Positions 12,984 through 33,975 of a stretch of DNA of 64,000 bases are shown here, piece after piece. Numbering within the stretch: the first letter of the stretch is position 1; every line of letters begins with the position of its first letter. Source of the stretch: Candidatus Fraserbacteria bacterium (GTDB lineage Bacteria > Bipolaricaulota > Bipolaricaulia > RBG-16-55-9 > DRXL01); assembly GCA_947085185.1 (NCBI GenBank), contig CAMTVK010000003.1, positions 64,001-128,000 of the forward strand, given 5' to 3'. Below the pieces are notes generated by a model. That model had not been told where the DNA came from and ran no database searches. It saw nothing but the letters and a program-made list of their open reading frames with translations. Position numbers and translations under genes: made by a program.

Positions 12984-13415
12984 ATGCGCAACAGAAAACT
13001 CAAGATACTCTTAGTTGAGGACAACCCCGATGACGTGAAGATCGCGGAGCGATCGCTGAAGAAGGGCAATGTCCAGAGCGATCTCTATGTCGTGCAAGAC
13101 GGGCAGGAAGCGCTGGACTTTCTGCGCCGCCGGGGGAAGTTCGCCGACGCTCCCCGGCCCGATCTCATCTTTCTCGATCTCAACCTCCCCAAGATCGGCG
13201 GCCATAAGGTCTTGGAGGAAATCCGCAAGGATCCACAACTCAAGCGCATCCCCGTCATCGTTCTGACGGTCTCCAAGCGTGAAGAAGACATCGTCAAAGC
13301 CTATGACTCTGGGGCAAGCGGCTATATCCCCAAGCCACCCAGCACCACCGAGTTTATTAAAGTTATTAATACTGTGCTCGACTACTGGGAGGTCTCGGAG
13401 CTGCCGCCGGCCTAA
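12984..13415 (+). CDS. Single-domain response regulator (Rcp1-like)
   Basis: LLVEDNPDD, FLDLNLP, YIPKP. Confidence 0.93.
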   Translation: MRNRKLKILLVEDNPDDVKIAERSLKKGNVQSDLYVVQDGQEALDFLRRRGKFADAPRPDLIFLDLNLPKIGGHKVLEEIRKDPQLKRIPVIVLTVSKREEDIVKAYDSGASGYIPKPPSTTEFIKVINTVLDYWEVSELPPA

Positions 13416-13480
13416 GACTTTCACGGGATTTTCACGTGGAGGTCATCTCTTTTTGACGTTGGGGATGCTACACTTTTTCA

Positions 13481-13886
13481 GAGAAACCTGTCCGGTGGTC
13501 GTAGGGACACCAGACACTCGTATATCTGACGAACTCTCTTGCGGGGGTAGACAGGGGTCCTTTCGCTCCTGCGGGAGAGGGGGTACAGTAGAGAGCGATG
13601 ATCGCTCACAGGGAGAACCGACAGAGAAGAGTCCGAGGCATGGTGCCAGCCAAGGGAGCGGGTTTACGGCCCGACGGACCAGGGTTTTGCCGCGTCGCTC
13701 CTGCCAACCTCCTTCGGCGCGGATTTTTCCCCAGTCTGGACTTGGCCGGGGTTCGAGTCCCCACGGGCGAGGGAAACCTAGGTTCTTCCTGCGGTCGTAG
13801 GGGCACCCTCCTCCGGGTCGCTCCTATGGCCGGTGGTTGCTAACCTCATTCCCCGGGAAGGCGGGATCAACCCCTCCCGCCTTCCC
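13481..13886 (+). ncRNA. Candidate large structured non-coding RNA, family not recognised
   Basis: Extended -10 TGcTACACT upstream; many nested helices including an 11-bp long-range pair 13609-19/13781-91; T-loop GGGG-TTCGAGT-CCCC; 12-bp terminal hairpin; no credible ORF. Confidence 0.6.
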
Positions 13887-13908
13887 TCCCTGCCTCTCCT
13901 AGCTTCGA

Positions 13909-13944
13909 TTGCCACGCGCGCTGCCGTGTTATATAATTACACGG
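13909..13944 (+). promoter_or_regulatory. Promoter of the ykuK-like gene with an overlapping inverted repeat
   Basis: TTGCCA-17-TATAAT; CCGTGT-N9-ACACGG spans the -10. Confidence 0.6.
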
Positions 13945-13963
13945 TGGAGGTCCAAACGAAGCT

Positions 13964-14446
13964 ATGTTCAAGACAGCGCGGTTCTACAGCCCCACACTGG
14001 GGAAGCTCACCTTCGAGCAGGTTGTGGACGAGATCGTGCGCATCATGGAAGAGGACCCGCACACGCGCTATGAGATCGTCGTGGGCAGCGATTCCCACTC
14101 GAGCCCCGGCGAGATGGACTTCGTCAGCGCGGTCATCGTGCATCGGGTGGGCAAGGGCGGACGGTACTTCTGGAAGCGCATCCGCGAGAGGAATATCTAT
14201 ACGCTCCGCCAGAAGATCTATCGTGAAGCGCTGCTCAGCTTCGAGCTCGCCAAAGACCTGATGGAGGAGCTGGAGCGGCGCACCATGCTCGATTATAACT
14301 TAGAGATTCACGTGGATGTTGGGCGCAACGGGCGCACGAGAGAGCTCATTGACGAAGTCGTGGGGATGATCATAGCCAGCGGCTTCCCCGTCAAGACCAA
14401 GCCCGATTCTTACGCGGCGTCCTGTGTGGCTGACAAGCATGCGTAA
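13964..14446 (+). CDS. RNase H-like YkuK family protein (DUF458)
   Basis: IVVGSDS, KIYREA, LEIHVDVG, KPDSYAASCVADKH. Confidence 0.88.
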   Translation: MFKTARFYSPTLGKLTFEQVVDEIVRIMEEDPHTRYEIVVGSDSHSSPGEMDFVSAVIVHRVGKGGRYFWKRIRERNIYTLRQKIYREALLSFELAKDLMEELERRTMLDYNLEIHVDVGRNGRTRELIDEVVGMIIASGFPVKTKPDSYAASCVADKHA

Positions 14447-14907
14447 TGCCTGACCTCACCCCCAACCCCTCTCCGACGGGGGATTTTATCTCCGCAAGTC
14501 CCGAAGAGACGCGCTGCCTTGCGGCGCAGCTCGCATCGGAGCTTGCCCCAGGCGATTGTCTCTTGCTCATTGGGGAGCTTGGGGTCGGCAAGACGACGTT
14601 TGTGCAGGGGCTGGCCCAAGGGCTAGGGATCAGGGAAACAGTCCGTTCGCCCACGTTCATCCTGATGCGCGAGTACAGGGGAAAGTTCCCGCTCTATCAC
14701 TTCGACGCGTACAGAATAAAAAATCTTGACGAGCTGCGCGAGATCGGCTTTGAAGATACCGTGCGCTCCCAGGGGATTACGGCCATCGAATGGGGCGAGA
14801 AAACTGAGGGCTTGCTGCCCCAGAGGTGCTGGCGTATTTTGATAGAGCTCTTGCCCGATCAGAGGCGGCGCATCTGTGTAGAGCGCCCTCAAGAGCCCAG
14901 CACATAG
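14446..14907 (+). CDS. tsaE: tRNA threonylcarbamoyladenosine biosynthesis ATPase
   Basis: GELGVGKTT, VRSPTF, HFDAYR, IEWGE. Confidence 0.95.
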   Translation: MPDLTPNPSPTGDFISASPEETRCLAAQLASELAPGDCLLLIGELGVGKTTFVQGLAQGLGIRETVRSPTFILMREYRGKFPLYHFDAYRIKNLDELREIGFEDTVRSQGITAIEWGEKTEGLLPQRCWRILIELLPDQRRRICVERPQEPST

Positions 14908-16166
14908 AGCCCGCTGTTGTTGTTCCCAATGATGATCTCCAAAAAGCCGTCGCTATCGAGATCTGCAAGGGTTGGCGAAGAGAAGAACTGCGCGGCGGCC
15001 CTGGGGCGATAGGCCCACTTGCGCGCGCCGCTGCGCCCGTCAAGACAATAGAGATTCCCATCATGCGAGCCGACCAAGACTTCGAGCTTGCCGTCGCTGT
15101 CAATATCCGCAAGAGCTGGGGAAGACTCGACGAGATCATTCGTAGAGAAGCTCCATCTCAGGCGACCGTCACTGCCGGAGAGCGCAAGGACTCTCTGATC
15201 GTTGATCCCAATAGCGATCTCGATCTTGCCGTCGCCGTCGAGATCGCCGATCGCTGGTGACGACGGGATGCGCTCTTTATGGGCTTCAAAGAACCATCGT
15301 CTTTGGCCGGTGCGCCCGTCGACACAGAAGACGCCGCGCTTGCTGGAGCCCACGACAGCTTCGAGTTGTCCGTCGCCGTCGAGATCGCTGAGCGCTGGCG
15401 ATGATTCGACCGGGCCACCAGTGTCAAAAGCCCATTTTGCTGTGCCCGTCCGCCCGTCGAGCGCGTAGAGCTTTCCGTCTAAAGAACCGATAACGATCTC
15501 TATTCTGCCATCGCCGTCTATATCCGCGACGGCGGGCGAAGAACGAGCAGGGAAGTCGGGGAGAAATTTCCATTTCACGGAACCGGTGCGGCCATCGAAC
15601 GCGTAGACGCGCTCTGAGCCGACGATCACTTCAGATTTTCCGTCGCCGTCGATGTCAGAGATTGCTGGGGAGGAGAGAATGCCGTCTTCCGTGAGAAAAG
15701 TCCATTTGGGGCGGCCGGTTCGCCCGTCTAAGAGAGCGAAGCTCTTGTCTTGGGAGCCGATGGCCACTTCGAGCCGCCCGTCGCCGTCGGCGTCGGCGAT
15801 CGCCGGGGAAGAATAGACCCAACTTTTCGTCCCGTAGCGCCATTTGAGAGCCCCGCTGCGCCCATGATACGCGTAGAGATTGCCATCGTAAGAGCCGACG
15901 ACGACTTCCAAGATGCCGTCGCCATCTACATCGCCGACGGCCGCAGACGATTCGACGAGCCCGCGCGTGAAGGCACTCCAGCGCTCTTTGGGAGCTGTGA
16001 TCTTACTTGTCTTTGTCGCGCGCCCGGTGTGCAGAAGATCGCGGCGGAACATGGGCCAGTCGCTCACGGGAGCCTGCGCTCTTGTGCTCGTTTCTTGAGG
16101 AAGCATCGGCGCTGTAAGCACGAGCGTGCAGCTGATCTTCAGAAAATCGCGGCGCGACAGCGTCAT
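14889..16166 (-). CDS. Tat-exported FG-GAP/PQQ-like beta-propeller repeat protein
   Basis: SRRDFLK; about 8 repeats of SSPAxxDxDGDG..E.vGS....yalDGrtG..kW. Confidence 0.85.
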   Translation of the reverse strand: MTLSRRDFLKISCTLVLTAPMLPQETSTRAQAPVSDWPMFRRDLLHTGRATKTSKITAPKERWSAFTRGLVESSAAVGDVDGDGILEVVVGSYDGNLYAYHGRSGALKWRYGTKSWVYSSPAIADADGDGRLEVAIGSQDKSFALLDGRTGRPKWTFLTEDGILSSPAISDIDGDGKSEVIVGSERVYAFDGRTGSVKWKFLPDFPARSSPAVADIDGDGRIEIVIGSLDGKLYALDGRTGTAKWAFDTGGPVESSPALSDLDGDGQLEAVVGSSKRGVFCVDGRTGQRRWFFEAHKERIPSSPAIGDLDGDGKIEIAIGINDQRVLALSGSDGRLRWSFSTNDLVESSPALADIDSDGKLEVLVGSHDGNLYCLDGRSGARKWAYRPRAAAQFFSSPTLADLDSDGFLEIIIGNNNSGLYVLGS

Positions 16167-33965: not shown

Positions 33966-33975
33966 AAAGATAGAG

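Follow-up and report, generated by a model that had tools for sequence, protein, structure and literature searches.

Evidence for a family of tRNA-shaped noncoding RNAs in the phylum Bipolaricaulota

A gap between two protein genes of a Candidatus Fraserbacteria genome carries a stand-alone gene for a structured, tRNA-shaped noncoding RNA, and we are highly confident that this RNA represents a new family, restricted, as far as we searched, to one phylum. An earlier sequence-only reading of the window (the whole 64,000-nt stretch of DNA analyzed here) had proposed a novel large noncoding RNA at this place. That proposal is borne out by the absence of any Rfam match at gathering score, by strong covariation among homologs (38 of 50 pairs compensated), by a phylum-wide distribution and by discrete, high-depth metatranscriptome contigs. 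Its further suggestion, a partnership with the product of the downstream ykuK gene, did not survive. Taking identity and mechanism together, our best explanation is that the RNA displays a copy of the 16S rRNA anti-Shine-Dalgarno (anti-SD) sequence on a tRNA-like scaffold and thereby acts on translation; we give this explanation as a whole a probability of about 0.35.

Known RNA families do not account for the gap RNA

The gap, read earlier as ~550 bp, measures 548 bp from the stop codon (13413-15) of a stand-alone receiver gene (12984-13415) to ykuK (13964-14446), and we found no credible protein gene in it. Rfam 15 at gathering scores matched two tRNAs only in the whole window, both outside the gap. 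A permissive scan of 13300-14100 (E up to 10) returned 15 matches, all at chance level, the best reaching 21 bits against thresholds of 58-60. ARAGORN called no tRNA or tmRNA in the gap, and only the tRNAs at 33975 and 35016 in the window. The sequence-only reading had seen no signature of RNase P, tmRNA, SRP or 6S RNA, and Rfam is likewise silent on these at the locus. The first three RNAs lie elsewhere in the host genome (1.72 Mb, 96.8% complete): RNase P RNA at C1:79930 (224 bits), tmRNA at C21:124943 (134 bits, the gap locus being absent among the 22 matches listed) and SRP RNA at C14:38805 (57.5 bits). The 6S model had no match anywhere in the genome, and the RNase P, SRP and 6S models had none at the gap locus. 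Self-cleaving ribozymes (hammerhead, twister, HDV-like and others) were absent among the 15 Rfam matches at E up to 10, a negative that leaves room for a new ribozyme class. As a test for Y RNA/YrlA we looked for a Ro60/TROVE gene (PF05731), which was not found in this 96.8% complete genome. A known family as the identity of the gap RNA was rejected, Rfam having been empty on this part of the window and on ten paralogue loci, and ARAGORN empty as well. The portions of the literature retrieved for Bipolaricaulota/Acetothermia with ncRNA terms described no ncRNA for the phylum.

The structure is conserved across the phylum

The + strand of 13481-13886 folded with a minimum free energy (MFE) of -194 kcal/mol (z -3.40, 0 of 100 shuffles as good), compared with z -0.16 for the reverse complement, in keeping with the strand favored earlier. 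This single-sequence fold already included every helix later backed by comparison. By blastn, 35 of 41 relatives had a match to the stretch, as did 44 of 184 genomes of the phylum. We aligned the core from 29 genomes of nine families on sequence only (alignment A1), wrote the structure onto that alignment and built from it a covariance model, R1, with 50 pairs over 201 positions. R1 matched 103 of 151 sampled genomes of the phylum at E up to 0.001, covering all 11 families sampled; the matches were full-length for the main copies listed, and 45 of 69 high-quality genomes were matched. Every sampled genome carried a match in families f1 (15/15), f2 (1/1), f3 (9/9), f4 (4/4), f5 (3/3), f6 (1/1), f7 (1/1) and f11 (4/4), as did 13/14 in f10, 32/43 in f9 and 19/55 in f8; the 48 genomes of 151 with no match were mainly of family f8.

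A 28-position motif of T-loop and junction occurred at 57 loci among 185,579 species genomes, all of them MAGs of Bipolaricaulota/Acetothermia by label or contig identity. Several MAGs that carry the RNA (loci L129, L130, L135-L138, L172 and others) are titled Thermotogae, Fraserbacteria or Neomarinimicrobiota. Some of their contigs coincide with contigs placed in this phylum, and the labels in the public record are therefore inconsistent.

Covariation was scored on a model-guided alignment, A2, of 84 R1 matches (65 distinct sequences). In A2, whose fit to the model favors the structure, 91.5% of cells were paired, versus 77.6% after shuffling and 36-50% with the partners slid. Under the same fit, compensatory changes on both sides occurred in 38 of the 50 base pairs (65 distinct sequences), and cells changed on both sides numbered 437 versus 146 expected, a count reached by 0 of 500 shuffles. 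The sequence-only alignment A1 gave the same covariation, and the single-sequence MFE the same helices.

The core resembles a tRNA cloverleaf

The core domain (13609-13791, + strand) is conserved across the phylum by A1, A2 and the MFE. Its closing stem P1 (13609-19/13781-91), one of the helices drawn earlier, covaries at all 10 modeled pairs. On P1 stand an acceptor-like stem, PJ (13631-35/13764-68), a D-arm-like hairpin, P2 (13636-39/13645-48, loop NNGGU), the helix Pk (13649-54/13741-46) and a T-arm, P5 (13748-51/13759-62, loop UUCGAGU), joined with 0-2 unpaired bases between them; as predicted from the alignments, this four-way junction is a tRNA-like cloverleaf. P5, in which a tRNA-like T-loop had been recognized at 13748-62, is 100% paired, and two of its four pairs covary. 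Nearly all of the 65 distinct sequences preserve both the T-loop (UUCGAGU/UUCGAAU) and the GG in the loop of P2 (NNGGN). In one sequence a G->C change in the P2 loop occurs together with C->G in the T-loop, a change that its sister sequence does not have; we take the paired change as no more than a hint. A two-pair GAAA mini-hairpin (13771-78), also seen in the sequence-only reading, is present and, because it is nearly invariant, neither supported nor refuted by covariation. Also strongly conserved are the junction nucleotides AGUCCG and GGGCGAGGGAAACC.

Pk, in the place of an anticodon arm, branches into P3 (13660-64/13668-72) and a long arm, P4, made of P4a (13675-79/13734-38), P4b (13682-84/13729-31) and P4c (13690-97/13715-22), all on the + strand. 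The 17-nt apical loop of P4 (13698-13714, CUCCUGCCAACCUCCUU) contains CCUCCU at 13708-13, which is invariant or nearly so in the 29 sequences of A1, from all families. The ACCUCCUU of this loop is identical to the 3' end of the genome's own 16S rRNA (GGAUCACCUCCUUUCU, C5:33400).

The gap RNA shares part of the tRNA pattern: its T-arm bears a UUCRANY loop, with which the GG of its D-loop could make contact. Its acceptor-like stem has 5 bp, not 7, a three-way junction occupies the anticodon arm, and the Rfam tRNA model (RF00005) stayed silent on it even at E up to 10. A T-arm lengthened by GCC/GGC was considered and rejected, since it would form at the expense of PJ and does not hold in L036, in which PJ covaries fully.

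Of the nine structural elements in the sequence-only reading, seven stand up at least within this genus, and two helices are refuted. In the proposed 13630-34/13738-42 the 3' side varies against a fixed 5' side, and the pairings supported instead are PJ and Pk. In 13654-60/13696-702 the 5' side varies within the genus opposite an invariant partner.

The 3' domain is order-specific, and parts of the RNA recur in the genome

Families f1-f5 and f7 bear two elements after P1, a nearly invariant single strand and a terminal hairpin. In f9 and f10 the RNA ends soon after P1, and the 3' domain, the leader box and the kinase neighborhood described below are all missing, so any role that needs these would be order-specific. 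The single-stranded block (13833-13854, + strand, GUGGUUGCUAACCUCAUUCCCC (GUGGUUGCUAACCUCAUUCC)) is nearly invariant in f1-f5 and includes a second, degenerate anti-SD-like motif (AACCUCAUU). The terminal hairpin (13855-13886, + strand, 11-12 bp), drawn earlier as a terminal stem, is 97.8% paired, with compensatory changes in 6 of 11 pairs; no U-tract follows it. After it comes a CU-rich 3' tail (13887-13893, + strand). CUCCCUG (13886-92) is complementary to CAGGGAG (13609-15) and paired with it in the MFE of the mature form, so that the tail could vie with the 3' strand of P1 for this partner and draw the two ends together. Complements of the 3' single strand (up to 4 mismatches), the box, the junction and the leader motif occurred nowhere else in the genome. 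Mimicry of 16S helix 45 by the 3' domain was rejected as too weak, with ~14 of 23 positions matching the genome's own 16S end.

Between P1 and the single strand lies an expansion hairpin (13792-13832, + strand, stem 13792-803/13821-32, loop CCCUCCUCC). The stem had been proposed earlier and is a real hairpin, folded in the MFE, although as an insertion it is confined to family f1 (genera g1, g2 and g3) and is missing from f2-f5 and f7 in the alignments. At 13797-13806 it contains the 10-mer GTAGGGGCAC of a repetitive (REP) element without the second arm, and the 5' leader contains GTAGGGACAC at 13501-13510. The REP element of this genome has the form GTAGGGGCACG-N4-6-CGTGCCCCTAC, with 23 matches of the 10-mer, mostly in paired arms. 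A REP origin of the insertion hairpin and of 13496-13510 was discarded, since the shared part is the 10-mer only and the 3' arm differs.

The P4 module, in the order CCAGGGUUUUGCC, stem with a CCUCC-type loop, GGAUUUUUCCCCAG, recurs at five more sites in the genome: C1:9274-9443 (L091), C3:57683-57739 (L092, ~6.3 kb before the start of the window), C9:44613-74 (L093), C2:170329-425 (L094) and C5:52749-814 (L096). The C1 paralogue is matched full-length by R1 at 55.5 bits and has its own closing stem, D-like hairpin and T-arm, that is, the whole cloverleaf. Most paralogues have ACCUCCUU near the 5' end and CU-rich tails, and none has an Rfam match. An intergenic stretch at C2:119274 with two ACCUCCU-type motifs (AAUCACCUCCUUGGGCUUGGCC...CUCACCUCCUAGGG) may be a further anti-SD small RNA.

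An abundant 286-nt RNA lies downstream of a leader and a putative regulated promoter

Twenty-two metatranscriptome runs hold part of the stretch, and we examined the contigs of four of them (X1, X2, X4 and X5). The sole contig of X2, of 275 nt, spans 13619-13893 without flanks. X4 yielded a contig of 315 nt over 13617-13893, at a depth of 457. The contig with the receiver gene and leader has a depth of 10 and the ykuK contig one of 29 in the same run, placing the RNA 16-45 times above both flanks. The ends of the 315-nt contig repeat the same 30 nt, so that it closes on itself, joining 13893 to 13608. In X1, at a mean depth of 359-440, contigs extend from the receiver gene across a diverged leader into the core, and from the core on into ykuK; enrichment of the RNA over its flanks is not visible in this run, where read-through or DNA is possible. 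Depth in X5 was under 4. The abundant species in the X2 and X4 contigs is thus a + strand RNA of ~286 nt, 13608-13893, which starts one base before P1, right after the invariant box of the leader, and ends seven bases past the terminal hairpin. The extent proposed earlier, 13481-13886, was incorrect for the accumulating RNA, and 13481-13607 is therefore a low-abundance structured leader.

This 5' leader (127 nt, + strand) is conserved in the order. It contains a conserved GGGACACCAGACAC at 13504-17 (leader motif GGGACACCRAGCAC), a hairpin at 13534-79 with GGGGUCCUUUCG (13554-65, GGUCCUU) at its tip, and an invariant box, GAUGAUCGCUCAC (GAUGAUCGCUCA), at 13597-13609, which ends at the mature 5' end. 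Of the helices drawn here earlier, 13487-92/13550-55 could form in this genus; it is absent from the MFE fold. The other, hairpin 13593-607, folds in this genus upstream of the abundant RNA, and other families have no local hairpin there.

Upstream of the leader we read, as the sequence-only reading had, an extended -10 element (TGcTACACT, 13466-13474, + strand). It is preceded by four phased hexamers, TTTCAC (13419), TTTCAC (13430), GGTCAT (13441) and TTTGAC (13452), which occupy 13419-13457 (+ strand) with a period of exactly 11 bp, the last one ending 11 bp before the -10. The hexamer block is conserved in other families, and relatives have TAnnnT at an equal distance from the repeats. A loose regular expression found ATTTYCAC 132-213 nt upstream in 14 of 23 loci and a strict version in 7 of 23, both of them undercounts because several loci are mis-anchored. 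The block looks like the operator of a direct-repeat-binding activator, and the layout of 13419-13474 resembles the direct-repeat boxes of OmpR/PhoB-type activators. Transcription would start at ~13480-13482. A block similar to these hexamers is found at the C5:52749 paralogue. Two other readings of the region were discarded. TAnnnT before GAUGAUCGC as a promoter, with a start at 13596, conflicts with the conservation of the upstream 180 nt and with the beginning of the abundant RNA at 13608; sigma-54 and sigma-28 readings of the box misfit in spacing (by eye).

Possible modes of action

Our best guess at what the RNA does, a tentative one, is that it is a tRNA-shaped anti-SD mimic acting on translation, and we rank this ahead of a tRNA-mimicking ribonucleoprotein (RNP), which in turn ranks ahead of a circular or self-processing RNA. 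What the data show is the strand, structure, conservation, ends and abundance of the RNA; the promoter and its control, the processing and the entire mode of action are inferred. In the first case the regulated promoter, with its extended -10 and four 11-bp-spaced hexamers, would yield a precursor starting near 13481. The 127-nt leader would be removed or be unstable, and the 286-nt RNA (13608-13893) would accumulate. The tRNA-shaped scaffold would stabilize this RNA and present the invariant CCUCCU loop (ACCUCCUU here) as a copy of the 16S anti-SD, alongside the second anti-SD-like single strand and the CU-rich tails found in this order. The RNA might then act in trans on translation initiation by pairing with GGAGG Shine-Dalgarno sites of mRNAs or, alternatively, by titrating a factor that recognizes the 16S 3' tail. 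The upstream operator would determine the amount of the RNA, possibly via the adjacent PAS kinase/receiver pathway. Several observations weigh against this mechanism. Junction conservation of this strength (AGUCCG, GGGCGAGGGAAACC) is seen more typically in RNAs that are catalytic or bound by protein than in sRNAs that act by base pairing; an anti-SD motif of six bases would find a partner in most mRNAs and so gives no specificity; and X1 shows no enrichment of the RNA over its flanks.

The second reading, which we regard as possible but somewhat doubtful, takes the RNA for a tRNA mimic working as an RNP. Its elbow would be bound by a tRNA-recognizing protein or RNA, such as RNase P, a modification enzyme, an aminoacyl-tRNA synthetase or a ribosomal site, which the RNA sequesters, scaffolds or is processed by, and CCUCCU would be secondary. 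The near-invariance of junction and T-loop nucleotides across the phylum is consistent with such a partner, as are the tRNA-like four-way topology and an abundance and stability like those of other RNP RNAs, and at four of five f9 loci the gene follows an ORF with a putative class II aminoacyl-tRNA synthetase end (by eye). Yet the RNA has neither a CCA end nor a 7-bp acceptor stem, its mature ends leave via P1 rather than the acceptor-like stem, it receives no score from ARAGORN or the Rfam tRNA model, and no partner protein is conserved beside it.

The head-to-tail join in X4 may reflect a circular RNA or equally a ligation or template-switch product, and it marks the ends either way. That the RNA is circular in the cell, with 13608 and 13893 joined, for example by RtcB, after a cleavage leaving 5'-OH and cyclic phosphate ends and with GAUGAUCGCUCAC marking the 5' cut, seems to us improbable. 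The 30-nt self-overlap of a contig at depth 457 whose flanks assembled separately at 10 and 29 argues for it, a contig from a second study ends at the same 13893, the 3' tail is able to pair with the 5' end, and RtcB is encoded in the genome. But RtcB is common in bacteria (control), the circle appears in one of four runs and in assembled contigs only, ligase steps or template switching during library preparation can join an abundant RNA head-to-tail, and no self-cleaving ribozyme family matches. Circularity or self-processing could be combined with either the anti-SD regulator or the tRNA-mimic RNP. One such combination, a long shot, is that tRNA-shaped RNAs throughout the phylum display the 16S anti-SD and mimic the mRNA-docking tail of the ribosome, the main member being cut out of a structured precursor at the invariant box and circularized, e.g. 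by RtcB. It would then be a circular, tRNA-like regulator of translation initiation, encoded on the chromosome and under two-component control.

The genomic neighborhood argues for a stand-alone gene

We scanned the neighbors of the RNA against Pfam at 15 loci. A PAS histidine kinase (HisKA, HATPase_c) and the stand-alone receiver precede the RNA in f1-f4 and f7 and make up its order-wide conserved neighbor; in the window, Crp-like and Lrp-like regulators precede the kinase. MutS2 lies upstream of the RNA in f10, and in f9 the RNA follows a different gene and has its own TTGACA/TATAAT promoter. Downstream, outside this genus, come an FG-GAP propeller, PurH, GatB, hydantoinase B or HD_5, usually on the opposite strand. 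The FG-GAP propeller is the immediate downstream neighbor, on the opposite strand, in f2, f4 and f7. In this genus ykuK (PF04308) and tsaE (PF02367), together 13964-14907, stand between the RNA and the FG-GAP beta-propeller gene (14889-16166).

It is quite unlikely that the RNA acts in cis, whether as a riboswitch or leader for the gene that follows it or as a 3'-UTR element belonging to the kinase-receiver operon. The kinase and receiver upstream in f1-f4 and f7 are what a 3'-UTR element would have, contigs of X1 and X4 bridge the receiver gene, leader and core, and occurrence in several copies per genome would be riboswitch-like. Against this, the genes downstream at the 15 loci fall into six different families and lie mostly on the other strand; in f9 and f10 different genes lie upstream and the RNA is served by its own promoter; the RNA exceeds its flanks 16-45 times in X4; and ykuK has a promoter of its own, as the sequence-only reading had held, which agrees with the consensus at 11 of 12 positions.

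Very improbable, and largely refuted by synteny, is the earlier suggestion that the RNase H-like protein YkuK (DUF458) has the RNA as its partner or substrate. PF04308 follows the RNA at both loci scanned in this genus, and ORF inspection places ykuK next to it at most of 12 g1 loci; in other genera and families PF04308 adjoins the RNA at 0 of 13 loci, the RNA family extends far beyond the YkuK linkage, and ykuK has its own promoter. Judged by gene order, the link is an accident of one genus, which corrects a tempting but wrong association. Least probable of all is a small protein of 81 aa (ATG 13598 to TAA 13841-43): the ORF from a conserved ATG is open for 57-97 codons in 17 of 26 sequences and often ends in a conserved GCUAACC, but six of 26 have early stops and three no ATG, the core frames are open about equally (34, 34 and 39 of 65) with none preferred, variability by codon position (0.60/0.74/0.60) has no third-position excess, the abundant RNA starts at 13608, downstream of the ATG, and compensatory pair changes account for the conservation pattern.

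Relation to known RNAs and an antisense match

The tRNA-like domain of tmRNA and YrlA are stable bacterial ncRNAs that copy the tRNA elbow. The gap RNA has in common with them a T-arm whose T-loop is canonical, a D-like loop, an acceptor-like stem directly beside the T-arm, and other structure in place of the anticodon arm. Unlike tmRNA, which this genome encodes elsewhere, it has no CCA end, tag reading frame or series of pseudoknots, and unlike YrlA it comes from a genome in which no Ro60/TROVE gene was found. It differs from both in ends that leave via the extra stem P1, in a long arm with an anti-SD loop and in having several paralogues per genome.

Anti-SD-like CCUCC in hairpin loops is also a feature of the alpha-proteobacterial, multi-copy ar14 or 'cuckoo' sRNAs (CCUCCUCCC loops). 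Their model (RF02344), alone among those of Rfam, gave an end-to-end alignment to part of the region, at 20.7 bits against a gathering score of 58.8 and over 13793-13891 only. These sRNAs consist of two simple hairpins without a tRNA-like junction and belong to a different phylum. OLE, GOLLD, ROOL and raiA are large, 'ornate' orphan ncRNAs of bacteria. The gap RNA is like them long, highly structured, lineage-restricted and recognized by covariation, but their Rfam models do not match it, it is smaller (core of ~190 nt, 286 nt in all), and its core is tRNA-like.

The family adds a well-supported, abundant RNA to an uncultured phylum, in most of whose families it is present. Its fold is unusual, a tRNA cloverleaf in which a branched arm with an anti-SD replaces the anticodon arm, and it comes with several paralogues per genome. 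Should the anti-SD display or the circular form prove real, the RNA would tune translation by a new route or stand as a rare example of a circular RNA encoded on a bacterial chromosome.

A perfect 21-nt antisense match to 13692-13712 of the window (the 5' strand and loop of P4c) occurs at C7:124158-124178 (L186), between the stop codon of an RTX-repeat gene and the terminator hairpin of that gene. In family f4 we found no compensating site of this type; exact matches there were confined to the genes of this RNA, and matches with one mismatch were at control level. A core of 15-21 nt of the C7 site is kept in seven further loci of g1 and g3, with diverging flanks. The site could be a lineage-specific target or sponge, or an inverted copy of a fragment of the RNA gene.
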